Of a stretch of DNA of 64,000 bases, positions 14,661 to 63,432 are shown piece by piece. The DNA comes from a virus (lineage: Duplodnaviria; Heunggongvirae; Uroviricota; Caudoviricetes): the IMG/VR virus record IMGVR_UViG_3300027749_005140, positions 1-64,000 of that record, one strand, 5' to 3'. Below the pieces are notes generated by a model that saw only the letters and a list, made by a program, of their open reading frames with translations, made no database searches and had not been told where the DNA came from. The number at the start of each line of letters is the position of its first letter. Positions within the stretch are counted from its first letter, which is position 1. Made by a program: the position numbers and the translations under genes.

Positions 14661-17600
14661 TTATTTTTTACTTGATGTTGACCAATCATCTATATATGCT
14701 GGACTACCACCAGTTGAGTTGAATTTTCTTACAATAACTTTATTTCTATTTAAGTTAAATTTAAGTGTAAATATAAATGGTCTATTTTCTGCCTCATTTT
14801 CCAAGAAGAATTTAATTTTCTTAACATGTTTAACAGTTTTTGTTGAATTATTAAGATCAACATACTGATAGTTTACTCCTGATTGACTATTATCTAGTGA
14901 GTTAAGTTTAAAATAAATGTTTAATGGAACTATAATAGAATTCTTATCACCAACATTTAATGTTTTAACCTTATCACTATTATTTTCTTGTATATTTTCT
15001 AAATTTTTAACTACTGGATGAATAGTTGTTAAGAATTTAGTTGTTGATGCAATTGAAACAGTCACATCATTCCATTTTGAAGGATCTAATAACGATTTAT
15101 TATTACCAATAAATTTTAATATACCAGACTCATTATAACCAACATTATAATCACTTGTCGCAAGTACATTTGTTATAGAGTTTGAGTTTACACTAGAATT
15201 ATCAAATCCATTACCTATATTCTCTGATAATTTAGCAACTGTATTTTGTGTAATAGAATCATAGTTCATTTGCCAAACAAATTGATTGTCTAAGTGAGTT
15301 CTTGTTTGACCAGTTTCAATAACATCATTTGTCAATAACTCATCTTGATTATTTACCCAGAAACTTTGAGGTGCCTGTGTATTATAAATTGAACTACTTT
15401 GTAAGTAAGTTCTGTTAGATAACAAACCTAATAAAGACTCTTTAGCATTATTTTTAATTTTCATAACAAAGTCTTTAATAACATAAATATTATTTTCATA
15501 AACTCTACCAGTTGCAGCTCCTTGTCCATTAAATATAGTGCAATAATCTTCACACTCAACATTAAATGTTGTTTCAGAACCATTATTTACTATAAATTCT
15601 TGATTATTTCTAAGAATAATAATTTGAAGTTCACCTTTAGCTCTTGTAATTTTCTCTTCTAGTGATGAAATTCTATCAGATAACTTTTGTATATAAGCAT
15701 ATAAATCTAATGATACACCATTCTCATCTTGAAAACCGGATAAAATCTTTTTAGCTTCGTGATGAAATGTAACATTATTTACAGTTACCGTATCTGCCAA
15801 GTGATTATCTAATCCTTTTGCAGATAATTCAGAATTCATACTTATTTTTAAATCCTCTTTAGTTGCAGTCGCTAATATAAAATCATTCTCATTAGCAATT
15901 GTGTTTAAATCATCTGGGAAATCAATTGTAATAATTTCAGACCAATCAGATTCTACTGCAGATTCTGGCCAACCAACCTCTGATATAGATTTTATTCTAA
16001 TATCAACTCTCTCATTAGATTGAATTGGAATATCTATTTGATTAATATTTGGAGTATCTGCATTAGTAACATCTTCAATTGCCCAAGTGTACTCACCCGT
16101 TGAAGTATTATACTGTCTTTTTCTTGCATCAGTTTTAAATTCTGTCCAGTTAGAGAACGAAGCTTTACTTTGAGAATCTGTAATTGTAAATGTATCTACT
16201 GGTGCTTCTCTACCATCTTTACTAGTATATCTATATTGTATTCTAAATTGTACAATCTCTTGTGGTTTAGTACCCGTAGTAACTACAGAACTTGGAATAG
16301 TCCAAAAGCCTCTTACACTAAATTTAGGAGCAACTTTATTTTTTGGATCTTTAGATAAGTCAATAACTTCTTGAGTAACTGATGCAAGTAATTTACTTTT
16401 ACTATCTTTTTTATTAGTTAATTCTTCAACTTCTAAATCGGCTTGTTTTTTCGCAGAGTCTGATTTAAACTTAGTAAATTTTGATGCCTTATTTCTTGAT
16501 AAAATTGCTTCTTGTAATTGTTGTATCTCTGATTTCAAAGATAACTGATAATTATGTTTTTGTTTAACTAAATTAGAATCAGGTGTATCAGTAAGATGTT
16601 TATTGATTTGAACTACTTTAAAGTTATCTAATGCCAATGTTGGTGAACCTGGTGTACCTGCTAATGAATTTGGAGTTTTCTTTGCAACTAAATCTTGTAA
16701 AACGACACCATAATCATAAACATAGTCAATATAAAACTGTTCCATTGATAATCCATTTGCCGTGGATGCAGAACTAAGTCTCAAGTCATTTGTATAATAT
16801 CCAGTACCCAAACTCCATTTTTTTGCAACTAAATTATTATCAGCATTTACTGGTTTAATAAAAAGAACATTTCGTTCATTATAACCAACACTTACTCTAA
16901 CTTTTTTGGTATATATAAGTGATGAGTAAATCTTTAAAGTACCAATACCAACAGGAATTGGTTCAATCCCCTCAAGTCTTTCTACTCTAATTCTAGGATT
17001 AGACTCTGCAGTCGAAACTTCTAATATTTTATATCTTGTTGATGTCTTGTCAGAATTTATAATAACTTCATCACCGTTAGATAATTTTTTTGTCATATTT
17101 GCATCAACTATCAAATAATCCAGAGTATCCAAAACGTACCAAAGTTTTCTATTTAATCTATCTTCCTGTATTCTTAAAACACTAAACTGACCATCATATA
17201 ATAGGTGGTTAGGCTCTAAGTCAAAAATTTGCTCATCATACTTAGGATTCGTTGGATTTAATAAACCCGTTGTAGTAGTATACCAATTTTCAAATTCTGA
17301 TATAACCACGTTGGCATTTCCTCTAAATAACTGATTATAACTATTAAGTGCCGACTGACCTAATGTAGTAAATGAACCATCTGCATTTTTTGCAAAATCA
17401 ATAATATATCTTCTAATTAAACATTTTCTAACATTATCTTCAATTTTACCAGATAAATCAAGTTCTACAGAAACCATAGGATCCATAAGTGAATCAAAAA
17501 ACCAATTAGGTGATGACTTAAAAGTACTTAAAGTTCCTAAACTTCCAATTGGAGTAGGATCTCTATTCAAATCAACTGTAATAATCTTTTTGTATTTATT

Positions 17601-17867
17601 TTGTGATGTTGTTTGAATTAAAGCACCCGCTGAATCAATACTATAAAGTGAATTAATATTATTATTTAATCTATCAATATCTGCTTTTAAAGATGTAAAA
17701 GAAGGTAATGTAAATTTTCTTAATATACCATTTTCATCATATACTTGAAGAGTAACAGAAGAATCTGTTGTTGTTGTTAAAGAATTGATTTTAGATAAAA
17801 TCTCAACAATATTTTTATTATACGTTATTATTTGATCCGCTACTTTTGGAAATGAACTTTGAACCAT
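14661..17867 (-). CDS. large structural protein (1068 aa) with central coiled-coil
   Basis: Long ORF with coiled-coil segment (QLQEAILSRNKASKF..) and beta-rich Asn/Ser-rich C-terminus. Confidence 0.4.
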   Translation of the reverse strand: MVQSSFPKVADQIITYNKNIVEILSKINSLTTTTDSSVTLQVYDENGILRKFTLPSFTSLKADIDRLNNNINSLYSIDSAGALIQTTSQNKYKKIITVDLNRDPTPIGSLGTLSTFKSSPNWFFDSLMDPMVSVELDLSGKIEDNVRKCLIRRYIIDFAKNADGSFTTLGQSALNSYNQLFRGNANVVISEFENWYTTTTGLLNPTNPKYDEQIFDLEPNHLLYDGQFSVLRIQEDRLNRKLWYVLDTLDYLIVDANMTKKLSNGDEVIINSDKTSTRYKILEVSTAESNPRIRVERLEGIEPIPVGIGTLKIYSSLIYTKKVRVSVGYNERNVLFIKPVNADNNLVAKKWSLGTGYYTNDLRLSSASTANGLSMEQFYIDYVYDYGVVLQDLVAKKTPNSLAGTPGSPTLALDNFKVVQINKHLTDTPDSNLVKQKHNYQLSLKSEIQQLQEAILSRNKASKFTKFKSDSAKKQADLEVEELTNKKDSKSKLLASVTQEVIDLSKDPKNKVAPKFSVRGFWTIPSSVVTTGTKPQEIVQFRIQYRYTSKDGREAPVDTFTITDSQSKASFSNWTEFKTDARKRQYNTSTGEYTWAIEDVTNADTPNINQIDIPIQSNERVDIRIKSISEVGWPESAVESDWSEIITIDFPDDLNTIANENDFILATATKEDLKISMNSELSAKGLDNHLADTVTVNNVTFHHEAKKILSGFQDENGVSLDLYAYIQKLSDRISSLEEKITRAKGELQIIILRNNQEFIVNNGSETTFNVECEDYCTIFNGQGAATGRVYENNIYVIKDFVMKIKNNAKESLLGLLSNRTYLQSSSIYNTQAPQSFWVNNQDELLTNDVIETGQTRTHLDNQFVWQMNYDSITQNTVAKLSENIGNGFDNSSVNSNSITNVLATSDYNVGYNESGILKFIGNNKSLLDPSKWNDVTVSIASTTKFLTTIHPVVKNLENIQENNSDKVKTLNVGDKNSIIVPLNIYFKLNSLDNSQSGVNYQYVDLNNSTKTVKHVKKIKFFLENEAENRPFIFTLKFNLNRNKVIVRKFNSTGGSPAYIDDWSTSSKK

Positions 17868-29410: not shown

Positions 29411-29467
29411 ATTATCAGAAAAATTAAAATAAAAACATAAAAATTAGGTAGATAAGTAAACTTTTAT

Positions 29468-29475
29468 TACTTTTG
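29468..29475 (+). promoter_or_regulatory. -7 promoter box TAnnTTTG of leader/tRNA module 1
   Basis: tacttttg followed by conserved AAAAAGAGAGAATAAACTTTTAATATATA 5' UTR element. Confidence 0.5.
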
Positions 29476-29533
29476 TACTATAAAAATAACAAAAAAACAA
29501 AAAGAGAGAATAAACTTTTAATATATAATAACA

Positions 29534-29644
29534 ATGAGAACAAATTCAATACATACAAGCTTTAGTAAGTCGTTCAAGTGGTTTAGCCACAAGTTCGGAT
29601 GTATGAGTATGTCGTTCTCAAAAGAAGATGTTATTGTAGGATAA
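29534..29644 (+). CDS. leader peptide 1 (36 aa) of tRNA array 1
   Basis: MRTNSIHTSFSKSFKWFSHKFGCMSMSFSKEDVIVG; Lys/Phe/Trp/His codons mirror the downstream tRNAs. Confidence 0.45.
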   Translation: MRTNSIHTSFSKSFKWFSHKFGCMSMSFSKEDVIVG

Positions 29645-29674
29645 TGTCATAAAAGAGAATAAAACATAAACGTA

Positions 29675-29707
29675 AACCCGAACTTAAAATTAAGTTCGGG
29701 TTTTTTT
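29675..29707 (+). terminator. rho-independent terminator/attenuator 1
   Basis: aaacccgaactt aaaatt aagttcggg + ttttttt. Confidence 0.7.
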
Positions 29708-29716
29708 ATTTTATAA

Positions 29717-29789
29717 TCCCTCTAAACATTGTTGGTGGATGTACCAGACTTTTAATCTGGGAAGGTGGTTTCGATTACCACAGGGGGAA
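29717..29789 (+). tRNA. tRNA-Lys (anticodon TTT)
   Basis: Hand fold: acceptor tccctct/aggggga, anticodon loop cttttaa, T-arm gtggt ttcgatt accac. Confidence 0.55.
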
Positions 29790-29795
29790 CAAAAT

Positions 29796-29868
29796 ACAGG
29801 TCAGCATAATGGTATGCACCAGGTCTCCAAAACCTCGGATGGAAAGGGTTCGACTCCCTTGGCTTGTG
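29796..29868 (+). tRNA. tRNA-Trp (anticodon CCA)
   Basis: Acceptor acaggtc/ggcttgt, loop ctccaaa, T-arm aaggg ttcgact ccctt; D-arm slightly atypical. Confidence 0.45.
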
Positions 29869-29875
29869 CAAAAAA

Positions 29876-29948
29876 GTGGAGGTAGCTCAGTTGGTAGAGC
29901 ACTACCCTGAAGAGGTAGGTGTCGCGGGTTCGAGCCCCGCTCTCCACA
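29876..29948 (+). tRNA. tRNA-Phe (anticodon GAA)
   Basis: Acceptor gtggagg/tctccac, D-arm tagctcagttggtagagc, loop ctgaaga, T-arm gcggg ttcgagc cccgc. Confidence 0.65.
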
Positions 29949-29955
29949 CAAATAT

Positions 29956-30044
29956 GGTGTTTGTAACCGGTAAAGGCAGCCGACCAGATTGTGAATCTGG
30001 AATGAATTAATTTTCTAATGCGGGTTCGAATCCCGTCTCACACC
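29956..30044 (+). tRNA. tRNA-His-like (anticodon GTG) with G-1 and expanded variable region
   Basis: Extra 5' G, anticodon loop ttgtgaa, T-arm gcggg ttcgaat cccgt; 19-nt variable region and two acceptor mismatches. Possibly degenerate. Confidence 0.35.
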
Positions 30045-30062
30045 CTAAATTCTCCCTCTAAA

Positions 30063-30135
30063 CATTGTTGGTGGATGTACCAGACTTTTAATCTGGGAAG
30101 GTGGTTTCGATTACCACAGAGGGAACTAAGTCTTT
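30063..30135 (+). tRNA. tRNA-Lys (anticodon TTT), second copy
   Basis: Near-identical (1 nt difference) to the copy at 29717..29789. Confidence 0.55.
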
Positions 30136-30195: not shown

Positions 30196-31233
30196 ATGAT
30201 AAGTTGTAAATTTTGTAAAAAAGTATATATAGGACGTAATAAAAATAAAGATGTTTTAATACATGAGTCCCATTGTATTCTAAATACAGATAGAGTACCA
30301 TATATATGTAATATATGTGATATGGAGTTTGATAAAAGACATTCTTTAATAGGACATAAAAGTCATTGCGGTAATTTAAAAGTTAGGAAAAAACGGATTA
30401 CAAAAGAGAAAGTAATTAAAATACACAAATGTAAATACTGTGATTCAATATTCGAAAATGGTTATAAATTGGGCGGACATGTATCACATTGTGATAGAGA
30501 TCCAGAATATGAAACTAAGAGGAGAAAAATGTGTGATAATATCTCTTTTCTTAATAAAGGAAAGAAATTATCAGATGAAACTAGAAAAAAAATATCAAAT
30601 AGTAGAAGAGAATATTTAAAAAATAATCCAGATAAAGTTCCCTATCTATTAAACCATAGTAGAAATGAATCATATCCTGAGAAATACTTTACTGATGTTT
30701 TTTTAGATAGAAATATTAGTGTAATAAAATCTTACAGAATTGGATTATATGAATTAGATTTTTGTATTTTAGATAAAAAAATAGATATAGAAATCGATGG
30801 TGGTCAACACTATTTAGATAATAAAATTATTGAAAGTGATAAAAGAAGAAATAAATATCTAGAAGATTTAGGTTGGGATATAATTAGAATAAAATGGAGT
30901 GATTATCAATTGTTGGATAAAGATTCTAAAAGAGAATTTATTGATAATATAATCTATTACATAAATGGTCTGGTAAAAACTAAACCAACATTTGAAATAT
31001 TAGATAATAAAAATTATTGTAAATGTGGTATAGAAATATACAAATGTTCTAAAATGTGTTCTAAATGTGATTCATTTAGACAAAGAAAAGTTGAAAGACC
31101 TTCATTAGAGCAAATTTTAAAAGATATAAAAGAAACAAACTATGTCTTGACCGGTAAAAAATATGGTGTTAGTGATAACACTATAAGAAAGTGGATAAGA
31201 CAATATAATGCGGATTTAGCTGAGACGGTTTAG
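30196..31233 (+). CDS. homing-endonuclease-like protein: 3x C2H2 zinc fingers + DUF559/Vsr-like PD-(D/E)xK nuclease + C-terminal HTH
   Basis: CxxC..HxxxH x3; YELDF..IDIEIDGGQHY..D.RR..L..GWDIIRIKW core; stop codon lies inside the D-loop of the following tRNA. Confidence 0.55.
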   Translation: MISCKFCKKVYIGRNKNKDVLIHESHCILNTDRVPYICNICDMEFDKRHSLIGHKSHCGNLKVRKKRITKEKVIKIHKCKYCDSIFENGYKLGGHVSHCDRDPEYETKRRKMCDNISFLNKGKKLSDETRKKISNSRREYLKNNPDKVPYLLNHSRNESYPEKYFTDVFLDRNISVIKSYRIGLYELDFCILDKKIDIEIDGGQHYLDNKIIESDKRRNKYLEDLGWDIIRIKWSDYQLLDKDSKREFIDNIIYYINGLVKTKPTFEILDNKNYCKCGIEIYKCSKMCSKCDSFRQRKVERPSLEQILKDIKETNYVLTGKKYGVSDNTIRKWIRQYNADLAETV

Positions 31234-31285: not shown

Positions 31286-31422
31286 TAGAAAGTAGCTCAA
31301 TTGGTAGAGCACGTAATCATACTTAGTCAGTCTTTCTCTAAGAAACTCTCTTAGTAGCAATGAAATAAGTTACTTCGCTCTGTTAAAGCCGTGGTTGTGG
31401 GTTCGAGTCCCACCTTTCTATC
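31286..31422 (+). tRNA. tRNA-like gene with ~65-nt internal insertion
   Basis: Perfect acceptor tagaaag/ctttcta, canonical D-arm tagctcaattggtagagc and T-arm gtggg ttcgagt cccac, but 87 nt between D- and T-arms. Confidence 0.3.
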
Positions 31423-31464
31423 AGATAAATAAAAACAAAGAATAAAATTTTAATATATAGTAAT

Positions 31465-31542
31465 ATGAAAACAATTATCACAACATCGTCAAGTTCGTCT
31501 AGTCGCTCAAGTAATTTGAGGGAGGTTCTGTTGTGCTCATAA
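31465..31542 (+). CDS. leader peptide 5 (25 aa), Ser/Arg-rich
   Basis: MKTIITTSSSSSSRSSNLREVLLCS; upstream of tRNA-Arg and three tRNA-Ser. Confidence 0.45.
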   Translation: MKTIITTSSSSSSRSSNLREVLLCS

Positions 31543-31564
31543 TTGATATAAAAAATTAGTATGA

Positions 31565-31609
31565 AACCCACAGACTTCAAAGTTTGTGGGTCTTTTGTTT
31601 TTAATTGGT
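31565..31609 (+). terminator. rho-independent terminator/attenuator 5
   Basis: aaacccacagact tcaa agtttgtgggtc + ttttgttttt. Confidence 0.65.
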
Positions 31610-31678
31610 TCCATCGTTTAACGGATAGGATAGGTCGCTACGAACGATCAGGTGGGGGTTCGATTCCCTCTGGAATCA
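31607..31678 (+). tRNA. tRNA-Arg (anticodon ACG)
   Basis: Acceptor ggttcca/tggaatc, anticodon stem ggtcg/cgatc, loop ctacgaa. Confidence 0.5.
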
Positions 31679-31687
31679 CAAATATAT

Positions 31688-31770
31688 GGAGGGTACCGCT
31701 AAGGTAGCAAACTGGGCTTGAACCCCAGGGGTACGGGCAACTGTACGGGTTTCGATTACTCTACCCTCTT
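31688..31770 (+). tRNA. tRNA-Ser (anticodon TGA), class II
   Basis: Acceptor ggagggt/accctct, stem ctggg/cccag, loop cttgaac, long variable arm. Confidence 0.5.
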
Positions 31771-31776
31771 CAGAAT

Positions 31777-31862
31777 AGTGAGTAAGCCTTGATGGTGATA
31801 GGGTCTGCCTGGAAAGCAGTACGTACGTTTAGATGTATAGGGTTCGATTCCCTTGCTCACTA
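31777..31862 (+). tRNA. tRNA-Ser (anticodon GGA), class II
   Basis: Acceptor agtgagt/gctcact, loop ctggaaa, long variable arm, T-loop ttcgatt. Confidence 0.45.
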
Positions 31863-31870
31863 CAAAATAT

Positions 31871-31956
31871 GGAGGATGAATTCACTGGGTAGTGGACGCA
31901 GTTTGCTAAACTGTTGGTGCGTTAAATCGCATTGGGATCGAGACCTACTTCCTCCG
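31871..31956 (+). tRNA. tRNA-Ser (anticodon GCT), class II
   Basis: Acceptor ggaggat/ttcctcc, stem gcagt/actgt, loop ttgctaa, variable hairpin tgcg ttaaat cgca. Confidence 0.4.
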
Positions 31957-31960
31957 CATA

Positions 31961-38118: not shown

Positions 38119-38181
38119 AAATATTTCAAAAATATCAAAAGGGAGAAAAACTTTTTAATATATAGAACTATAAACATATAT

Positions 38182-38251
38182 CGCGTTAAAGTGTAAAGGT
38201 TGCATGAGACTTTCATAAGGTCTACGGGGTGGTTCGAATCCACGCTACGCT
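38182..38251 (+). tRNA. tRNA-like, anticodon CAT (poorly folding, possibly degenerate)
   Basis: Anticodon arm agact ttcataa ggtct and T-loop ggttcgaatcc; acceptor and D stems weak. Confidence 0.3.
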
Positions 38252-38298
38252 ACAAAAGAGATAGGTAACGATTTAGATACAAGTCTCAAAAAATATAT

Positions 38299-38371
38299 CG
38301 CGGGATAGAGCAGTAGGCAGCTCGTGTGGCTCATAACCATAAGGTCGGAGGTTCGAGTCCTTCTCCCGCTA
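38299..38371 (+). tRNA. tRNA-Met/Ile2-like (anticodon CAT) with C1:U72 mismatch
   Basis: Acceptor cgcggga/tcccgct, D-arm gagcagtaggcagctc, stem tgtgg/ccata, loop ctcataa, T-arm ggagg ttcgagt ccttc. Confidence 0.55.
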
Positions 38372-38420
38372 CTAAAAGAATAAAAAATTAAAAAAGATTT
38401 GGTGGTTTAAAAACTTATCG

Positions 38421-38428
38421 TATCTTTG
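38421..38428 (+). promoter_or_regulatory. -7 promoter box TAnnTTTG of leader/tRNA module 3
   Basis: tatctttg upstream of leader ORF 3. Confidence 0.45.
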
Positions 38429-38496
38429 TACTCACAAGATGAGAGTCACATAAGTGACTAGAAGAATTAAAAACAACAATTTAAAAAATAGAAAAA

Positions 38497-38598
38497 ATGA
38501 CAACAATTACTAACATAACAATAGCTATCGAAGCCATAGGCGGGTATGAAGCGGGGTATATTATACCATCGGTCAGAAGCGTTATGTCTATAAAGTAA
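38497..38598 (+). CDS. leader peptide 3 (33 aa), Ile/Thr/Gly/Glu/Tyr/Ala-rich
   Basis: MTTITNITIAIEAIGGYEAGYIIPSVRSVMSIK; resembles thr-operon leader; codons ATA, GAA, GGC/GGG, TAT, GCN match the downstream tRNAs. Confidence 0.45.
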   Translation: MTTITNITIAIEAIGGYEAGYIIPSVRSVMSIK

Positions 38599-38627
38599 TG
38601 AGTTGAAAAAAACATTATTATATAACA

Positions 38628-38667
38628 AACCCAATCTGACTTAAAAATCAGATTGGGTTTTTTTATT
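38628..38667 (+). terminator. rho-independent terminator/attenuator 3
   Basis: aacccaatctga cttaaaaa tcagattgggtt + tttttt. Confidence 0.7.
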
Positions 38668-38682
38668 GAATTAAAAGTACAA

Positions 38683-38767
38683 GGGAGTACGCCGGAGTTG
38701 GAGAGCCGGAGCGGTCTGTAACACCGTTGGCATTACGCCTGAGTAGGTTCGAGTCCTACTACTCTCA
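38683..38767 (+). tRNA. tRNA-Tyr (anticodon GTA), class II
   Basis: Acceptor gggagta/tactctc, stem gcggt/accgt, loop ctgtaac, variable arm, T-arm gtagg ttcgagt cctac. Confidence 0.6.
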
Positions 38768-38773
38768 CAAAAT

Positions 38774-38841
38774 AAAAGTGACTATGTGCGGGTCGAAAGA
38801 CTTGAAAAGCCAACCGAAATAGTCTAACGTGGTCACTTTTT
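38774..38841 (+). other. extended imperfect hairpin flanked by A-run and T-run
   Basis: aaaagtgactat ... atagtc taacgt ggtcactttttt; not a tRNA (no T-loop). Confidence 0.3.
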
Positions 38842-38848
38842 AGAATAT

Positions 38849-38921
38849 GGTGTATTCGTCTAGTGGTAAGGATTACGCTTTTTCAAAGCGGAGGACGTCG
38901 GTTCGAATCCGACATACACTA
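38849..38921 (+). tRNA. tRNA-Glu (anticodon TTC)
   Basis: Acceptor ggtgtat/atacact, D-arm tcgtctagtggtaaggat (Glu-like), loop ttttcaa, T-arm gtcgg ttcgaat ccgac. Confidence 0.5.
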
Positions 38922-38925
38922 CAAA

Positions 38926-38987
38926 TGTAAGTAGAGCTCCGGTGACTTCTACCTAACCGGGCATTGTGCTTGAGTAGAAGACTTACA
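38926..38987 (+). other. nested hairpin element between tRNA genes
   Basis: tgtaagt..cttctac..gtagaag..acttaca nested inverted repeats. Confidence 0.25.
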
Positions 38988-38991
38988 AAAT

Positions 38992-39066
38992 GCTGCTATC
39001 GTCTAACGGTAGGACAACATCTTCTCAAGGTGTGAGATACGGGTTCGATCCCCGTTAGCAGCACCA
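38992..39066 (+). tRNA. tRNA-Glu (anticodon CTC) with encoded CCA
   Basis: Perfect acceptor gctgcta/tagcagc, loop ttctcaa, T-arm acggg ttcgatc cccgt, followed by a cca. Confidence 0.55.
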
Positions 39067-39182
39067 AACAGATACTTGAGTGCAAGCAAGTTATAGTATC
39101 AGTCGTTAGGTCCTTGCAGACAGTGAACGGTGGTCCGAATGTCATTATTCGGTGGTGGATACCAGGCAACTCCATCATATAT

Positions 39183-39254
39183 GATCCGGTCTTCTAATGG
39201 TCAGGAAGCAAGGTTTTCATCCTTGTAATCAGGGTTCGATTCCCTGTCGGATTA
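39183..39254 (+). tRNA. tRNA-like, anticodon TTC (Glu-like; G1:U72 and G7:U66 wobbles)
   Basis: Acceptor gatccgg/tcggatt, stem caagg/ccttg, loop ttttcat, T-arm caggg ttcgatt ccctg. Confidence 0.4.
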
Positions 39255-39264
39255 CAAAAAAAAT

Positions 39265-39338
39265 TGGTAAGTAGCTTAGACGGTAGAAGCATCTGTCTTA
39301 TACACAGAAGATAGTGGGTTCGATACCCACCTTACCAA
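39265..39338 (+). tRNA. tRNA-Ile (anticodon TAT)
   Basis: Acceptor tggtaag/cttacca, stem tctgt/acaga, loop cttatac, T-arm gtggg ttcgata cccac. Confidence 0.55.
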
Positions 39339-39345
39339 CAAAATC

Positions 39346-39419
39346 GCGGGAGTCGTATAATGGCTCGATTATGCTGGCTTTCCACGTCAGAGACGAGGGT
39401 TCGATTCCCTTCTCCCGCA
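39346..39419 (+). tRNA. tRNA-Gly (anticodon TCC)
   Basis: Acceptor gcgggag/ctcccgc, stem ctggc/gtcag, loop tttccac, T-arm gaggg ttcgatt ccctt. Confidence 0.55.
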
Positions 39420-39428
39420 CCGCATAAT

Positions 39429-39502
39429 GCAAATGTATATCAATTGGTAGATAGTCTCGTTGCCAACGAGAAGGCTTGCGGGTTCGAGCCCCGTCATTTG
39501 CT
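39429..39502 (+). tRNA. tRNA-Gly (anticodon GCC)
   Basis: Acceptor gcaaatg/catttgc, stem tctcg/cgaga, loop ttgccaa. Confidence 0.6.
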
Positions 39503-39600
39503 CAGTAGAAGTGGTTTAAGTTATAGAAATCTCTATATCTAAGACGTTAGATGTAAATTTTTATACACCACTTTAATTATAAAGATAGTAGTAATATAAA

Positions 39601-39700
39601 GCGTTACTTCGTATTCAAACGACTATTATAGGTTCGAATCCTATTGTCCGCACAAATAATTAAATTGCGGATATAGTGTAATGGTAGCACAGTAAAATAC
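39601..39700 (+). other. two orphan tRNA halves: a 3' half (T-arm + acceptor 3') lying upstream of a 5' half (acceptor 5' + D-arm); their acceptor strands are mutually complementary
   Basis: ...ataggttcgaatcctat tgtccgc a (39628-39652) and gcggata ta gtgtaatggtagcac (39667-39690); tgtccgc pairs perfectly with gcggata. Confidence 0.25.
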
Positions 39701-39728
39701 GCTTAATAAACTTTCTCTATCTTATTTT

Positions 39729-39800
39729 GGGGCTATCGTATAATGGCTATTACACAGGGTTTGCAACTCTGATATTCCGGATCGTCCCCGGATAGCTCCA
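39729..39800 (+). tRNA. tRNA-Ala-like (anticodon TGC) with non-canonical T-loop
   Basis: Acceptor ggggcta/tagctcc (G3:U70 present), stem caggg/ctctg, loop tttgcaa, T-arm tccgg atcgtcc ccgga. Confidence 0.45.
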
Positions 39801-39977
39801 CAAAAAATAAAAAATAGATATGAAAACTAAAGAACAGTCGCTGGACGCATTTTAGTCACAGAAGAATATAAATCTTACTGTGACGGTAATAAAACAGAAA
39901 GAATTAAAAGATCATTAGTAAAAAATGGTTCACGTAATGATAGAAAATTACAAAAATATTCTGATAAATTTAACAAA

Positions 39978-61194: not shown

Positions 61195-61245
61195 CGGAAA
61201 TAAGAAATAAAAACAAAAAAATTAGGTAAAGCAGAAAACTTTTAT

Positions 61246-61253
61246 TACTTTTG
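61246..61253 (+). promoter_or_regulatory. -7 promoter box TAnnTTTG of leader/tRNA module 2
   Basis: tacttttg + conserved AAACAAAAAGAGAGAATAA 5' UTR element. Confidence 0.5.
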
Positions 61254-61309
61254 TACTATAAAAATAACAAATAAACAAAAAGAGAGAATAACATCTTAAT
61301 ATATACAAT

Positions 61310-61390
61310 AATGAAAACAACTAATCTAAATATTAACTTAACGCTGAATGTCTTATGTCTAAGACGTGAACCGGGTTTTGCCTTATTTAG
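61310..61390 (+). CDS. leader peptide 2 (26 aa), Leu/Asn/Arg-rich
   Basis: MKTTNLNINLTLNVLCLRREPGFALI; codons CTA, TTA x3, CTG, CTT, AGA, CGT match the downstream Arg(TCT) and Leu tRNAs. Confidence 0.45.
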
Positions 61391-61439
61391 AGCAAATGAT
61401 AATGTTATTGGATAACATATTATAACTAAATATACAAAC

Positions 61440-61472
61440 AAAACCCGAAATCTAAAAGTTTCGGGTTTTTTT
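61440..61472 (+). terminator. rho-independent terminator/attenuator 2
   Basis: aaacccgaaa tctaaaa gtttcgggtt + ttttttg. Confidence 0.7.
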
Positions 61473-61492
61473 GTGGAAAAAAATAAATAATT

Positions 61493-61565
61493 GGCTCTAT
61501 GATGTAATGGATTAGCATATAAATCTTCTAAATTTATCGTATAGGTTCGAATCCTATTAGAGTCA
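61493..61565 (+). tRNA. tRNA-Arg (anticodon TCT)
   Basis: Acceptor ggctcta/tagagtc, D-stem atgt/gcat, stem taaat/attta, loop cttctaa, T-arm atagg ttcgaat cctat. Confidence 0.6.
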
Positions 61566-61571
61566 CAAAAA

Positions 61572-61645
61572 GTCTGGGTGGTGAAACTGGAAAACACAAC
61601 AAGTTTAAGCCTTGTAAGCTGCGGGTTCGACTCCCGTCCCAGATA
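61572..61645 (+). tRNA. tRNA-Leu-like (anticodon TAA) with class-I architecture (short variable loop)
   Basis: Acceptor gtctggg/cccagat, stem acaag/cttgt, loop tttaagc, T-arm gcggg ttcgact cccgt. Confidence 0.45.
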
Positions 61646-61651
61646 CAAATT

Positions 61652-61733
61652 GCAGAGGTGATGTAATGTAACCATGCTGGTCTAAGAAGCCAGTGTCCGA
61701 AAGGACGTGCGGGTTCGAGTCCCGCTCTCGGTA
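61652..61733 (+). tRNA. tRNA-Leu (anticodon AAG by hand fold), class II
   Basis: Acceptor gcagagg/tctcggt (one mismatch), stem ctggt/gccag, loop ctaagaa, variable arm gtcc gaaa ggac. Confidence 0.45.
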
Positions 61734-61735
61734 CA

Positions 61736-62002
61736 ATGAAAGAAATAGATTATATACAGTACACATCATATACATTATTATCAAGTGGTAATGTATTTAA
61801 GGTAAATTCAGTTATGCCTTTACAAAGTTTAGACAAACACTTGAATGAAAGTACAAACTTAATTATGTTTGTAGTTCATAATATAAAGTGTAATGATAAA
61901 GAAGTAATGGTTTATAATAGAGATCTATTTAGATTTACATATGGATCAAAAGAATGTCCTGAAATGATTATGAAAATGAAACATTCACATATATTAGAAT
62001 AA
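61736..62002 (+). CDS. hypothetical protein embedded in tRNA array 3
   Basis: 88-aa ORF between tRNA genes. Confidence 0.3.
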   Translation: MKEIDYIQYTSYTLLSSGNVFKVNSVMPLQSLDKHLNESTNLIMFVVHNIKCNDKEVMVYNRDLFRFTYGSKECPEMIMKMKHSHILE

Positions 62003-62004
62003 TG

Positions 62005-62086
62005 TCGGAGTGATGAAATGGTAGACGTGCTAGCCTCAAAAGTTAGTGTCCAAGTGACGTGTGGGTTCGACTCCCACCTTCGATAC
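62005..62086 (+). tRNA. tRNA-Leu (anticodon CAA), class II
   Basis: Acceptor gtcggag/cttcgat, stem ctagc/gttag, loop ctcaaaa, variable arm gtcc aagt gac. Confidence 0.6.
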
Positions 62087-62095
62087 AAAAATATG

Positions 62096-62178
62096 CAGGT
62101 ATGGGGGAATGGTAGACCCGCTGGCCTTAGAAGTCAGTGCTGAAATATGCGTGTCGGTTCGAGTCCGACTACCTGTAC
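62096..62178 (+). tRNA. tRNA-Leu (anticodon TAG), class II
   Basis: Acceptor gcaggta/tacctgt, stem ctggc/gtcag, loop cttagaa. Confidence 0.6.
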
Positions 62179-62220
62179 AAAATAATACTAATAAAATTAG
62201 GTAGATTAAAAAACTAATAG

Positions 62221-62228
62221 TATATTTG
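62221..62228 (+). promoter_or_regulatory. -7 promoter box TAnnTTTG of leader/tRNA module 4
   Basis: tatatttg followed by perfect hairpin ctctgta ataa tacagag (62231-62248). Confidence 0.5.
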
Positions 62229-62314
62229 TACTCTGTAATAATACAGAGAGTGTTTTACACTACTATAAATAAAGATAAACAAAAAGGGACAATAAAAATT
62301 TAATATATAATATA

Positions 62315-62404
62315 ATGAAAACAAATACTGTAAATATTAATGTGATTACGATTACGAATTGTGTGAATAACACGACTTCGGGTAAGCGATTATGTATAGT
62401 ATAA
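62315..62404 (+). CDS. leader peptide 4 (29 aa), Asn/Thr/Val/Ile/Cys-rich
   Basis: MKTNTVNINVITITNCVNNTTSGKRLCIV; AAT/AAC, ACN, GTA/GTG, ATT, TGT codons match the downstream Asn, Thr, Val, Ile, Cys tRNAs. Confidence 0.45.
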   Translation: MKTNTVNINVITITNCVNNTTSGKRLCIV

Positions 62405-62430
62405 ACTCATATATTATATACAATTTATAA

Positions 62431-62466
62431 AGACCCGAACTCAAAAAGTTTGGGTCTTTTCTTTTA
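62431..62466 (+). terminator. rho-independent terminator/attenuator 4
   Basis: aagacccgaac tcaaaa agtttgggtctt + ttcttttat. Confidence 0.7.
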
Positions 62467-62471
62467 TATAT

Positions 62472-62542
62472 TCTTCTATAGTGAAATGGTATCACGTCTG
62501 ACTGTTAATCAGTTATTCCAGGTTCGAGCCCTGGTGGAAGAG
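62472..62542 (+). tRNA. tRNA-Asn (anticodon GTT)
   Basis: Acceptor tcttcta/tggaaga, D-stem gtga/tcac, loop ctgttaa, T-arm ccagg ttcgagc cctgg. Confidence 0.6.
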
Positions 62543-62551
62543 CAAAAAAAT

Positions 62552-62639
62552 TACTGGGTTGCCATAGCCAGGTCGAATGGTTCGGACTGTTAATCCGATG
62601 AGCATCGCTCCACCGTGGGTTCGAATCCCACCCCAGTAG
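62552..62639 (+). tRNA. tRNA-like, anticodon GTT, with class-II-length variable hairpin (atypical)
   Basis: Perfect acceptor tactggg/cccagta, stem tcgga/tccga, loop ctgttaa, variable hairpin gagc atc gctc, T-arm gtggg ttcgaat cccac. Confidence 0.35.
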
Positions 62640-62647
62640 CAATACAT

Positions 62648-62728
62648 TGGCACATACCAGCCCAACCTGATAAGTTGGAGAACTGTAGCGGTACGTTGAA
62701 AACGTGGGTTCGAATCCCTCTGTGCCAA
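62648..62728 (+). tRNA. tRNA-Ile-like (anticodon GAT) with atypical architecture
   Basis: Acceptor tggcaca/tgtgcca, anticodon arm ccaac ctgataa gttgg (loop identical to bacterial tRNA-Ile); D region too short and 26 nt between anticodon and T arms. Confidence 0.35.
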
Positions 62729-62735
62729 CAAAAAT

Positions 62736-62810
62736 AGTCCTATAGCTCAGTTGGTTCAGAGCGATTGTTTAACACACAATAGGTCGTCGGTTCGAATCCG
62801 TCTAGGACTA
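62736..62810 (+). tRNA. tRNA-Val (anticodon AAC by hand fold)
   Basis: Perfect acceptor agtccta/taggact, D-arm tagctcagttggttcagagc, stem attgt/acaat, loop ttaacac. Confidence 0.5.
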
Positions 62811-62847
62811 CTGAAAGTTGTTTTGTGAAACAAAACACTACAAAATC

Positions 62848-62919
62848 AGTTCCTTAGCTCAGCGGGAGAGCGGTTGTTTTACATGCAACAGGTCGTGGGT
62901 TCGATCCCCACAGGAACTA
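62848..62919 (+). tRNA. tRNA-Val (anticodon TAC)
   Basis: Perfect acceptor agttcct/aggaact, stem gttgt/gcaac, loop tttacat, T-arm gtggg ttcgatc cccac. Confidence 0.6.
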
Positions 62920-62924
62920 CAAAA

Positions 62925-62998
62925 ATACCTTGGTCGGTATATCAATTGGTTTAGATTATCACGCTGATACCGTGAAGGTTGCGAGTTCGAGTCTCGCA
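62925..62998 (+). other. degenerate tRNA-like element (T-arm only)
   Basis: gcgag ttcgagt ctcgc T-arm and cggtat/ataccg pairing, but no anticodon arm or acceptor 3' strand. Confidence 0.25.
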
Positions 62999-63007
62999 CA
63001 AAAATAT

Positions 63008-63095
63008 GGCATAGTGTCTGAGTGGTCGAAAGATGCGGTCTGCAAAACCGTAATGATTAAGTTCATCATCGTAGGTTCAAATCCTACCTATGCTT
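63008..63095 (+). tRNA. tRNA-Cys (anticodon GCA) with expanded variable hairpin
   Basis: Acceptor ggcatag/ctatgct, stem gcggt/accgt, loop ctgcaaa, variable atga ttaagt tcat, T-arm gtagg ttcaaat cctac. Confidence 0.5.
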
Positions 63096-63102
63096 CAATA
63101 AT

Positions 63103-63176
63103 GGCGCGGTGGCCGAGTGGCACGTAGGCGGTGGATTGCAAACTCACACACACTGGTTCGATCCCAGTTCGCGCCT
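63103..63176 (+). tRNA. tRNA-like, anticodon GCA (second Cys-like, irregular D-arm)
   Basis: Acceptor ggcgcgg/tcgcgcc, loop ttgcaaa, T-arm actgg ttcgatc ccagt. Confidence 0.4.
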
Positions 63177-63183
63177 CAAAAAT

Positions 63184-63256
63184 GCCGATATAGCTCAATA
63201 GGTAGAGTGCCAACTTGGTAGGTTGGAGGTTAAGGGTTCGATTCCCTTTATCGGAT
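63184..63256 (+). tRNA. tRNA-Thr (anticodon GGT)
   Basis: Acceptor gccgata/tatcgga (1:72 mismatch), stem ccaac/gttgg, loop ttggtag, T-arm aaggg ttcgatt ccctt. Confidence 0.55.
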
Positions 63257-63265
63257 CAATAAAAT

Positions 63266-63346
63266 GCTAGTGTGGCCCAGTGGCGACGGCACTTCCCTTG
63301 TAAGGAAGAAATAAAAACACCGCAGGTTCGAGTCCTGTCACTAGCT
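63266..63346 (+). tRNA. tRNA-Thr (anticodon TGT) with 13-nt A-rich variable region
   Basis: Perfect acceptor gctagtg/cactagc, stem cttcc/ggaag, loop cttgtaa, T-arm gcagg ttcgagt cctgt. Confidence 0.55.
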
Positions 63347-63351
63347 CAACA

Positions 63352-63386
63352 AAAAGACTTCTTTTAATTAAGAAGTCTTTTTTATT
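63352..63386 (+). terminator. rho-independent terminator
   Basis: aaaagacttctt ttaatt aagaagtctttt + tttatttt. Confidence 0.7.
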
Positions 63387-63400
63387 TTAAACTAAAACCG

Positions 63401-63408
63401 TATCTTTG
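63401..63408 (+). promoter_or_regulatory. -7 promoter box TAnnTTTG
   Basis: tatctttg 24 nt upstream of the ATG at 63433. Confidence 0.4.
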
Positions 63409-63432
63409 TATAGAATAATAAATACTACTATT

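Follow-up and report, generated by a model that had tools for sequence, protein, structure and literature searches.

Why phages carry tRNA genes, and by what means they express them, is a long-standing question. In the 64-kb stretch of DNA analysed here (the window), a phage tRNA array for five amino acids lies behind a short open reading frame rich in codons for the same five, which raises the question of whether translation of the small reading frame governs transcription of the tRNAs behind it. We propose, with a probability of roughly 0.8, that the tRNA operon of this locus, referred to below as module E, is controlled by ribosome-mediated (leader-peptide) transcription attenuation.

A tRNA operon behind a codon-matched leader

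Genes for tRNAs were detected with ARAGORN, including relaxed settings, and with the Rfam tRNA model. The array and its end comprise the following features.

62472..62543, + strand: tRNA-Asn(GTT) (ARAGORN, Rfam)
62552..62640, + strand: tRNA-Asn(GTT), 89 nt, long variable arm (ARAGORN, Rfam)
62637..62729, + strand: atypical tRNA-Ile(GAT), weak D arm, long variable region (relaxed ARAGORN)
62736..62811, + strand: tRNA-Val(AAC) (ARAGORN, Rfam)
62848..62920, + strand: tRNA-Val(TAC) (ARAGORN, Rfam)
62938..62997, + strand: tRNA-like piece without acceptor, Ile(GAT)-type anticodon loop (Rfam tRNA 37 bits, model positions 8-63 only)
63008..63096, + strand: tRNA-Cys(GCA), 89 nt, long variable arm (ARAGORN, Rfam)
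63103..63177, + strand: tRNA-Cys(GCA) (ARAGORN, Rfam)
63184..63257, + strand: tRNA-Thr(GGT) (ARAGORN, Rfam)
63266..63347, + strand: tRNA-Thr(TGT), 82 nt (ARAGORN, Rfam)
63351..63382, + strand: end-of-operon intrinsic terminator (terminator scan)

The full Asn, Ile, Val, Cys and Thr set named in the original prediction is thus present, with Ile represented by the atypical Ile(GAT) gene (Rfam tRNA 34.6 bits at 62648-62728) and by the acceptor-less Ile-like piece. Between the attenuator and the terminator at 63351-63382 there are tRNA genes only. The prediction had placed the module at 62215-63350; the whole unit is slightly wider, at 62197-63382, running from the start of the promoter to the end of this terminator.

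Upstream of the array, and 3' of the promoter, lies the leader.

62315..62404, + strand: leader ORF, 29 codons plus TAA, peptide MKTNTVNINVITITNCVNNTTSGKRLCIV (frame-specific enrichment; outlier among small ORFs)
62321..62377, + strand: regulatory run, codons 3-21 of the leader (codon-by-anticodon check, run-length statistics)

Translation of this ORF gave the predicted composition of six Asn, six Thr, four Val, four Ile and two Cys residues. These five amino acids account for 22 of the 28 residues after the initial methionine (binomial 1.1e-7, against a baseline of 0.295 for the same amino acids in the long ORFs of the window), a match that is inflated for module E specifically, as the N-termini of all leaders are rich in Asn, Ile and Thr. 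Beyond position 9, the next 12 residues are all in the set (12/12). From codon 3 to codon 21 there is no interruption: every codon (Asn AAT/AAC, Thr ACN, Val GTA/GTG, Ile ATT or Cys TGT) is one that the tRNAs at 62472-63347 can decode. This run of 19 in-set codons compares with 8 for the runner-up among the 219 small ORFs of the window, of which the leader is the sole outlier. A leader of this kind could in principle arise by chance or as a by-product of AT-rich, low-complexity sequence, given that Asn, Ile, Thr and Val are common in this AT-rich genome (29.5% with Cys included) and that the leader holds short direct repeats (gattacgattacga); both the binomial value and the run length speak against this explanation, as does the covariation described below.

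Promoter and upstream elements

Three elements were located upstream of the leader.

62197..62230, + strand: Bacteroidota-type promoter, TTAGGT (-33-like), 20-nt spacer, TATATTTGTA (pattern search, orthologue conservation)
62231..62248, + strand: perfect 7-bp hairpin CTCTGTA-ATAA-TACAGAG, then AGTGTTTTAC (hairpin scan)
62300..62309, + strand: TTAATATATA motif, 5-7 nt before the leader ATG (motif count, related contigs)

The -7 box, TAnnTTTG, lies at 62221-62228 and is kept in the orthologous modules. Exact matches to TTnG-N20-TAnnTTTGTA occur at only three sites in the 64 kb, which are those of tRNA modules A, D and E. A scan for sigma-70 promoters yielded no enrichment, and promoters of that type were rejected in favor of the Bacteroidota type, which fits. 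The hairpin formed by ctctgta and tacagag, which had been suggested to act as an additional operator or 5' stabiliser, is real and sits immediately after the -7 box. However, an alignment places it within an insertion of ~32 nt that is missing from the orthologous E modules of three relatives (L015, L004 and L008); it is therefore no conserved component of the device, and its proposed role was rejected as a core part of the module.

With 13 copies in the window compared to 1.9 expected, the TTAATATATA motif also precedes ordinary ORFs, and most leaders in related contigs are preceded by it. We regard it as a general phage upstream motif that is possibly a second promoter, and with the ATG so close behind this promoter-like sequence, leaderless initiation in the phage modules is conceivable.

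Terminator and alternative pairing

Downstream of the regulatory run, the features of the predicted switch are as follows.

62376..62384, + strand: antiterminator strand (segment 2) CUUCGGGUA, codons 21-24, ORF nt 62-70 (truncated-transcript folds)
62388..62425, + strand: internal hairpin across the stop codon, inside the antiterminator helix (MFE and truncated folds)
62429..62469, + strand: intrinsic terminator (attenuator), 13-bp stem, then TCTTTTATAT (folds, terminator scan)

The terminator begins 24 nt past the leader stop codon and ends 12 nt ahead of the first tRNA, with its 5' arm at 62429-62441, its 3' arm at 62447-62459 and a T-rich tail after the stem. Its fold is about -17 kcal/mol, and the whole leader has a z of -4.95. 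The proposed complementarity between ttcgggt in the leader and acccgaa in the terminator was located at 62377-62383 and 62433-62439, the latter within the 5' arm of the 13-bp stem. When modelled transcripts end before the 3' arm, CUUCGGGUA pairs with the 5' arm in a duplex of -11.2 kcal/mol (z -3.4), a value reached by 0 of 200 dinucleotide shuffles. Modules A, B and D have counterparts of the hairpin across the stop codon in their folds.

Folds constrained by a ribosome show that the pairing is present with the A site at codons 5-14 and is lost from about codons 17-20 on, and equilibrium folds still permit pairing of segment 2 with the 5' arm (2:3) once the ribosome has reached the stop codon. 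That a ribosome at the stop codon would block this pairing is a steric and kinetic argument rather than a computed result. A conserved 1:2 protector helix was not found in a comparison of segment 2 with the upstream ORF, using codon-shuffled leaders as the control (29 leaders, mean z -0.08). Module E does form a local hairpin at nt 41-66 in its MFE fold, which is not a conserved feature. As there is no 1:2 protector helix, the model predicts read-through, not super-attenuation, when no ribosome is present.

Leader composition follows the downstream tRNAs

Four sister modules, each with a different matched amino-acid set, reside in the same window.

29444..30126, + strand: module A, leader 29534-29644 (..FSKSFKWFSHKF..), then Lys, Trp, Phe, His and Lys tRNAs
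31450..31957, + strand: module B, leader 31465-31542 (MKTIITTSSSSSSRSS..), then Arg(ACG), Ser(TGA), Ser(GGA) and Ser(GCT) tRNAs
38421..39801, + strand: module C, leader 38497-38598 (..IAIEAIGGYEAGYII..), then Tyr, three Glu, Ile(TAT), two Gly and Ala tRNAs
61222..62178, + strand: module D, promoter, leader 61311-61415 (MKTTNLNINLTLNVLCLRREPGFALFRANDNVIG), terminator, Arg(TCT) and four Leu tRNAs

For each of the five modules, its own array is the best match to its leader, and the diagonal ranks first of the 120 permutations. Module D lies directly upstream of module E and its leader also contains the Asn, Ile, Thr, Val and Cys codons of module E; the modular layout is possibly nested, as the codons of a following module recur in upstream leaders.

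Dozens more modules were found in related huge Bacteroidota phages (IMG/VR contigs, LR745206 and LR756501). Across 48 leaders, every one of the 20 amino acids is more common in the leader if its cognate tRNA is encoded downstream. An array of only Gln tRNAs follows the leader MTTFTQYQQQQQINRTD, Asp/Pro arrays follow leaders with NPQPQ..DQDQDPD, Gly/Ala arrays follow leaders with IIGNGAIAGGG, and arrays containing Met tRNAs follow leaders with MNLNMNMN. LR745206 has the Tyr/Glu/Ile/Gly/Ala module divided in two, with ASYESYYEEG before the Tyr/Glu array and ISIAVIGNGAGAI before the Ile/Gly/Ala array. Some leaders hold codons that lack an adjacent cognate tRNA, such as Gln in the Asp/Pro leaders of two relatives (L003 and L019).

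The enrichment is specific to the reading frame, at 0.341 in the ORF frame compared to 0.139 and 0.127 in the other two (39 leaders), with the ORF frame highest in 36 of these leaders (Wilcoxon 6.6e-8), and in 100,000 permutations of the arrays among the 39 leaders the observed match was never equalled or exceeded. As many of the compared leaders are homologous, the nominal p-values overstate the independence of the leaders. Together with the run length and binomial value of leader E, the permutations, the lack of enrichment in the other two frames and the covariation over all 20 amino acids effectively refute an origin by chance or low complexity. Codon choice in the leaders tracks the anticodon of the downstream tRNA as well. 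Leaders of Arg(TCT) arrays contain 15 AGA and 3 CGN codons, and those of Arg(ACG) arrays 8 CGN and 5 AGR; likewise, the leaders of Ile(GAT) arrays contain 13 ATT and 3 ATA codons, and those of Ile(TAT) arrays 9 ATA and 5 ATY.

In every module, a terminator lies between leader and tRNAs, 17-39 nt and mostly 20-30 nt past the stop codon, and its 5' arm complements the ORF segment just past the regulatory run with a mean z of -2.4 (39 leaders). The arm and its partner covary, as in the pairs CCCGAAC/GUUCGGG, CCCUCAGA/UCUGAGGG, CCCAGUUAGUC/GACUAACUG and CCUUGGACA/UUCCAAGGCG. This complementarity is weak in several modules of the Ser/Arg and Tyr/Glu types. The covariation across related phages and the sister modules of the window lend strong further support to the core of the original prediction, a codon-matched leader combined with a terminator and antiterminator.

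These comparisons also bear on whether the ORFs encode functional micropeptides, or have no function at all, with the hairpins being ordinary terminators or structures and the resemblance to the tRNAs incidental. The leaders do have a conserved N-terminus in common (M-K/R/T-T-I/N...), and this might point to a family of peptides. Yet orthologous leaders keep their composition while scrambling the order of their residues (KWF, KFWF, SFW), which argues for regulatory codons and not for a functional peptide, and for each of the 20 amino acids the composition varies together with the downstream array, in the ORF frame only and down to the choice of codon. In addition, the terminator sits between the promoter and the tRNAs, and the 12-30 nt before the first tRNA are too short for another promoter. 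We consider such an explanation very improbable.

The reach of the pattern was followed in other genomes. There was no tRNA among the features of the first 50 kb of Tenacibaculum phage PTm1, considered as a close cultured relative, and the regions covered in LR756504 and Lak-A2, 42 kb around the homologue of a 1068-aa protein, are without tRNAs, which speaks neither for nor against the design in these phages. In GTDB species genomes, none of the matches listed (at least 120 loci) to a phage-specific query pattern combined a leader, a terminator and a tRNA, which is weak evidence against such modules in cells.

Proposed attenuation of the tRNA operon

The model for module E builds on parts whose presence, spacing and alternative pairing are evident in the sequence, as is the covariation of composition and codon choice with tRNA identity. 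The promoter at 62197-62230, perhaps together with the phage motif just before the ATG, would start transcription, and the 29-codon leader would be translated by a ribosome while RNA polymerase moves on. With an ample supply of charged Asn-, Thr-, Val-, Ile- and Cys-tRNAs, the ribosome would pass the 19 matched codons, mask ORF nt 62-70 and then occupy the stop codon within the would-be antiterminator; because nt 62-70 would be masked, the 13-bp terminator would form and transcription would stop short of the first tRNA. With any of the five tRNAs scarce, the ribosome would stall in the first ~14 codons and leave nt 62-70 free to pair with the nascent 5' arm, which would block the terminator and allow the whole Asn/Ile/Val/Cys/Thr array to be transcribed. 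The new tRNAs would then lift the stall, so that decoding capacity would be under negative feedback. In this phage and its relatives, the remaining tRNA arrays would be governed by the same design, each with its own codon set. Leader translation, the direction of the switch, regulated read-through and the physiological trigger are the steps that we infer, and candidates for the trigger include depletion or cleavage of host tRNAs and a mismatch in codon usage. A sensor of charged tRNA would also react to amino-acid starvation, a condition in which extra tRNA is of no help.

A device that likewise depends on translation could have another readout or the opposite polarity: it might be a general gauge of translation capacity, the position of the ribosome might affect the processing or stability of the RNA (RNase access, or 5' maturation of the first tRNA) instead of intrinsic termination, or read-through might be promoted by efficient translation and not by stalling. 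The missing conserved 1:2 helix is in line with such alternatives, as are the equilibrium folds, which do not by themselves exclude 2:3 pairing with the ribosome at the stop codon, and the short distance from terminator to first tRNA, which places processing and termination signals close together. A general gauge, however, would not need a different array-matched codon set in each module, and a hairpin followed by a U-run is a canonical intrinsic terminator. Furthermore, the partner of the 5' arm follows immediately after the regulatory codons, where it would be free if the ribosome stalls and covered if it translates on, so the geometry fits read-through induced by stalling. We therefore judge a different readout or polarity to be unlikely and favor attenuation relieved by stalled ribosomes.

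Extending this reading, it is likely that the entire tRNA complement of the huge Bacteroidota phages is organized as demand-driven operons behind codon-matched leaders, covering all 20 amino acids, which would make these the first tRNA genes under ribosome-mediated attenuation. If this is true, the phage measures and corrects the tRNA supply of the infection codon by codon, and infected cells do run short of particular decoders, a genuine and variable stress that may stem from mismatched codon usage, host tRNA turnover or anticodon-nuclease defences. Leader-peptide attenuation would then reach from metabolic genes to the decoding machinery, and the family would amount to about ten natural, compact sensor types that jointly cover all 20 amino acids.

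Comparison with known systems

Module E has the general features of leader-peptide attenuators, namely a short ORF after a promoter, cognate codons, a terminator and an antiterminator that depends on ribosome position, and it departs from the class in the genes regulated, which are tRNAs only. Compared with the canonical trp-type attenuator of four segments (1:2, 2:3, 3:4), it differs in the 1:2 protector. To our knowledge, ribosome-mediated attenuators regulate genes for amino-acid biosynthesis, transport or aminoacyl-tRNA synthetases, and we know of no direct feedback loop of this kind on tRNA abundance for cellular tRNA genes. In full-text literature searches and a term search of the paper describing related genomes, we found no account of tRNA genes being controlled by a leader peptide.

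In mycobacteria, leaderless poly-Cys short ORFs are reported to act as Cys-responsive attenuators (bioRxiv 10.1101/834739). The likeness lies in a short ORF that may sit at the very 5' end of the transcript and through whose codons downstream expression responds to one amino acid; the mycobacterial system differs in controlling protein-coding operons of Cys metabolism, by another mechanism and in another host.

T-box elements recognise uncharged tRNA by direct binding, for which they use a specifier codon and the T-box sequence; neither a ribosome nor a leader ORF takes part. They resemble the phage modules in using transcription attenuation to report the state of a specific tRNA and in having translation-related targets; we know of no T-box that controls tRNA genes. 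The T-box model (Rfam RF00230) had no match at gathering score in the window, nor at E<=1 in 61200-63420.

In the E. coli pheM-pheST system, leader-peptide attenuation of an aminoacyl-tRNA synthetase operon responds to charged tRNA. As in the phage modules, a component of the translation apparatus is placed under a leader peptide; the system differs in that the target is a synthetase and one amino acid is sensed. Phe-leader attenuators at the E. coli tRNA-Phe genes pheU and pheV were considered as a parallel and rejected, the upstream regions having neither a Phe-rich ORF nor a terminator.

Finally, the multivalent attenuators of enterobacteria include thrL (Thr and Ile) and ilvL (Ile, Leu and Val), alongside trpL, hisL, leuL and pheL. 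Matches to the Rfam models Thr_leader (RF00506) and Phe_leader (RF01859) scored 24-27 bits, compared to a gathering score of 55, and covered essentially the terminator only. The phage modules share with the enterobacterial attenuators a short codon-rich leader, an intrinsic terminator, a mutually exclusive antiterminator that depends on the ribosome, and the sensing of several amino acids, and leader E resembles thrL in appearance. Unlike the tandem runs of the enterobacterial leaders, those of the phage interleave up to seven or more amino acids, and the modules are phage-encoded, carry a Bacteroidota-type promoter and form a genome-wide set for all 20 amino acids. They also regulate tRNA genes instead of biosynthetic enzymes, so that the product fed back would be the decoder itself.

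A codon-matched leader upstream of the module E tRNA array

The combined layout of module E, a short leader ORF followed by an Asn/Ile/Val/Cys/Thr tRNA array, is that of a ribosome-mediated attenuator, and the module belongs to a genome-wide set. The best explanation is a leader-peptide attenuator with matched codons, through which a phage tRNA operon is regulated by feedback; we place the probability of this mechanism at roughly 0.8 and hold the direction of the switch with somewhat lower confidence.

Components of module E
62231-62248, +, perfect 7-bp hairpin directly 3' of the TAnnTTTG box
62315-62404, +, leader ORF, MKTNTVNINVITITNCVNNTTSGKRLCIV
62429-62459, +, attenuator hairpin, 13 bp, then TCTTTTAT
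62472-62543 and 62552-62640, +, tRNA-Asn(GTT), two copies (tRNA search)
62637-62729, +, atypical tRNA-Ile(GAT) (ARAGORN, relaxed threshold; Rfam 34.6 bits at 62648-62728)
62736-62811, +, tRNA-Val(AAC)
62848-62920, +, tRNA-Val(TAC)
62938-62997, +, second Ile(GAT)-like piece (Rfam 37 bits, model positions 8-63)
63008-63096 and 63103-63177, +, tRNA-Cys(GCA), two copies
63184-63257, +, tRNA-Thr(GGT)
63266-63347, +, tRNA-Thr(TGT)
63351-63382, +, end-of-operon terminator

The leader contains Asn 6, Thr 6, Val 4, Ile 4 and Cys 2, the composition given in the original prediction. These five amino acids make up 29.5% of residues in the long ORFs of the window and 22 of the 28 residues counted in the leader (binomial probability 1.1e-7). 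Among 219 ATG-initiated ORFs of 20-45 codons taken from all six frames of the window, this leader had the highest in-set fraction and the longest unbroken in-set run, at 19 codons compared to 8 for the next. With ordinary wobble, the anticodons downstream can read all of codons 3-21 (19/19), and the alternative two frames of the same DNA contain many stop codons and show no enrichment. The match is genuine and statistically robust.

The expectation that the array would supply exactly these five amino acids was confirmed; its Ile(GAT) is atypical, requiring the relaxed ARAGORN threshold. The piece at 62938-62997 lacks an acceptor stem and retains a D arm, a T arm and an anticodon arm (CUGAUAC, Ile-GAT type). 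In the orthologous array of L008, a related IMG/VR locus, the second Ile(GAT) is complete. For many amino acids an ordinary tRNA is accompanied by a second copy of 82-93 nt with a class-II-like long variable arm (Asn 62552-62640, Cys 63008-63096, His 29957-30045, Thr 63266-63347 and Ile 62637-62729 in the window; Pro, Asp, Trp and Gln in relatives, at loci including L002, L003, L019 and L023). In bacteria, long variable arms are normally found only in Leu, Ser and Tyr tRNAs.

Matched leaders elsewhere in the window

Four further units share this build: a promoter and/or TTAATATATA motif is followed by a short ORF and a terminator, with the tRNA array last.

Sister modules in the window
Module A, leader 29534-29644, ..FSKSFKWFSHKF..; tRNAs Lys, Trp, Phe, His, Lys
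Module B, leader 31465-31542, MKTIITTSSSSSSRSS..; tRNAs Arg(ACG), Ser(TGA), Ser(GGA), Ser(GCT)
Module C, leader 38497-38598, ..IAIEAIGGYEAGYII..; tRNAs Tyr, Glu x3, Ile(TAT), Gly x2, Ala
Module D, leader 61311-61415, MKTTNLNINLTLNVLCLRR..; tRNAs Arg(TCT), Leu x4

When the five leaders were scored against the five arrays, the true pairing was the best among 120 permutations. Module D adjoins E on its upstream side, and its leader alternates Leu with N/I/T/V/C codons; between them, the D and E arrays can decode every codon from 3 to 18. Transcription reading through from D may thus give E a second, nested input. Similarly, leader A contains 9 Ser, matching the module that follows it, B (Ser/Arg tRNAs). 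Upstream leaders carrying the codons of the next module could reflect nested, hierarchical control, or the pattern could be a trace of the splitting of a merged module like those in related loci L002, L097 and L111 and in the huge-phage genome LR745206.

The Met region (38155-38372) lies behind a TTAATATATA motif and comprises a Met-like tRNA-like sequence (~38170-38250) followed by Met(CAT) (38299-38372); it differs from every other array in the window in having neither leader ORF nor terminator. Protein-coding insertions interrupt two arrays: a 345-aa endonuclease-like ORF (REase_MTES_1575, DUF559, NUMOD3) lies between Lys and Phe in array A (30196-31233), and an 88-aa ORF without a Pfam hit lies between Leu tRNAs in array D (61736-62002). 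By eye, a T arm and 3' acceptor strand at 39600-39700 precede a 5' acceptor strand that matches and a D arm, either a permuted or a broken gene, and at 31290-31422 a tRNA 5' part and T arm stand ~70 nt apart, intron-like in look.

Leader composition covaries with the array in relatives

The window derives from a huge phage. It encodes a 1068-aa protein (14661-17867, minus strand) that shares 73.5% identity with LR745206.1 (634,780 bp), 66.6% with LR756502 and 37% with LR756501; remoter matches include Lak megaphages as well as Tenacibaculum and Chryseobacterium jumbo phages. Genomes >634 kb have been placed in the Mahaphage clade, with replication predicted in Bacteroidetes, in a paper whose text lacks the word stems 'attenuat' and 'leader' (PMC7162821).

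Related leaders were collected with two IMG/VR pattern scans, which used only the upstream motif and first three codons, so that the regulatory codons were not built in, and with a composition-blind pipeline (terminator <=70 nt upstream of a tRNA; longest ATG-ORF ending <=90 nt before the terminator). Together these yielded ~40 distinct leaders on ~25 contigs, some of 476-597 kb, and leader composition tracks the array in every class of relatives.

Leaders of relatives and the tRNAs downstream
Relative, MTTFTQYQQQQQINRTD; Gln x3
Relative, MKTLINILVNPQPQVVVDQDQDPD..; Asp, Pro, Pro
Relative, MKTINVNIAQVQPQDQDP..; Gln, Asp, Pro
Relative, MKAVNNISIIGNGAIAGGGP..; Gly, Gly, Ala, Ala
Relative, MKTMNLNMNMNTLTVVNNTLCIRR..; merged Ile/Asn/Arg/Leu/Val/Thr array including two Met(CAT)
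LR745206, MNTITNIASYESYYEEG.. (ASYESYYEEG); Glu, Tyr
LR745206, MKNLNNISIAVIGNGAGAI.. (ISIAVIGNGAGAI); Ile(TAT), Gly, Ala
LR756501, MLQTSKHSKHFSSSSKWF..; Trp, His, His, Phe, Lys
LR756501, MNNILHINLLNSLCLLGIKLIG; Leu x5

Seven leader/tRNA modules were found within the 100 kb of LR745206 examined. The Tyr/Glu/Ile/Gly/Ala unit of the window exists there as two modules (45029-46400 of L133, a part of that genome, corresponding to ~365.0-366.4 kb of LR745206), and this split, with each leader restricted to its own subset, is a natural experiment in support of codon matching.

The match of leaders to their own arrays was 0.353, compared to 0.158 +/- 0.017 with arrays permuted among 39 leaders (0/100,000 as high), and the ORF frame scored 0.341 against 0.139 and 0.127, ranking top in 36/39 leaders (Wilcoxon p = 6.6e-8), p-values that overstate independence because many leaders are homologous. 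Even so, the covariation signal is drawn from ~10 module classes plus splits and fusions of modules. For 20/20 amino acids, the mean leader count was higher with a cognate tRNA downstream (48 leaders). Codon choice also tracks the downstream anticodon: leaders before Arg(TCT) arrays use AGA 15 and CGN 3, those before Arg(ACG) CGN 8 and AGR 5, those before Ile(GAT) ATT 13 and ATA 3, and those before Ile(TAT) ATA 9 and ATY 5. Orthologous leaders keep their composition while residue order is scrambled (KWF, KFWF, SFW), a comparison pointing to regulatory codons and away from a functional peptide.

Relatives also carry anticodon-CTA tRNAs (L068, in the array after 5668; L135, part of LR745206, position 12344, ~507.3 kb), which would read the amber codon; one such tRNA heads a Gly/Ala array behind a Gly/Ala leader.

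Promoters and upstream motifs

Exact matches to TTnG-N20-TAnnTTTGTA, which we take to be of the Bacteroidota -33/-7 promoter type, occur only three times in 64 kb, at modules A (29444-29477), D (61222-61255) and E (62197-62230), and a scan found no enrichment of sigma-70-type sites. The restriction of exact matches to A, D and E suggests that the tRNA modules are transcribed by the host polymerase, perhaps at an early stage of infection. The TTAATATATA motif ends 5-7 nt before most leader ATGs and has 13 copies in the window versus 1.9 expected, preceding ordinary ORFs too (sites include 4384, 21094, 30166 and 49645 on the plus strand and 8158, 17890, 26587 and 57239 on the minus strand). It is probably a phage promoter or a 5' motif; if the former, its distance from the ATG means that leader mRNAs could be leaderless.

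The 7-bp hairpin, originally proposed as an additional operator or 5' stabiliser, is perfect and lies right after the -7 box, but it falls within a ~32-nt insertion missing from 3/3 orthologous E modules (L015, L004, L008) and was rejected as a conserved part of the device.

A predicted three-segment switch

The module E leader RNA (62315-62470) folds at -38.5 kcal/mol (z = -4.95 versus shuffles) with the terminator intact. The predicted complementarity between ttcgggt (62377-62383) and acccgaa (62433-62439), within the terminator 5' arm, was borne out, and when the transcript ends before the 3' arm, ORF nt 61-69 become the pairing partner of the 5' arm (58-69 in module A, 60-70 in B, 62-69 in D), forming an antiterminator helix that encloses a hairpin spanning the stop codon. 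Complementarity of the 5' arm to upstream RNA had a mean z of -2.4 over 39 leaders, versus dinucleotide shuffles of that RNA, and z = -3.4 in module E (0/200 shuffles as good). Across the 39 leaders, the partner sits without exception immediately 3' of the regulatory run and varies in step with the arm sequence; the stop codon precedes the terminator by 17-39 nt, mostly 20-30 nt.

With the ribosome modelled as an unpaired footprint, the 2:3-type pairing in E was kept at A-site codons 5-14, weaker at 17 and gone at 20. Early stalling would thus leave segment 2, the antiterminator strand in the ORF, free to capture the 5' arm, and polymerase would read through. Unimpeded translation would cover segment 2 and bring the ribosome to rest at the stop codon, within the region that would otherwise form the antiterminator; we infer that the terminator then forms, steric exclusion at that position lying outside the folds. 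No conserved 1:2 protector helix was found (mean z -0.08), so an untranslated leader would default to read-through, and the design is therefore one of three segments, not the classical four.

Comparison with known systems

No T-box match was found, and the device is therefore not a T-box. A possible precedent, a Phe leader before E. coli tRNA-Phe genes, was checked and rejected. No description of leader-peptide attenuation of tRNA genes was found in the full-text papers searched, which take in only a minority of those from subscription journals. Rfam leader models score the phage device below threshold (24-27 bits versus 55). The closest analogues are thrL and ilvL, multivalent leader-peptide attenuators, and pheM-pheST, in which a synthetase operon is attenuated. 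The phage device has the parts that generally define an attenuator: cognate codons within an ORF, an intrinsic terminator and a predicted ribosome-dependent antiterminator; unlike these three systems, it is missing the 1:2 helix and regulates tRNA genes.
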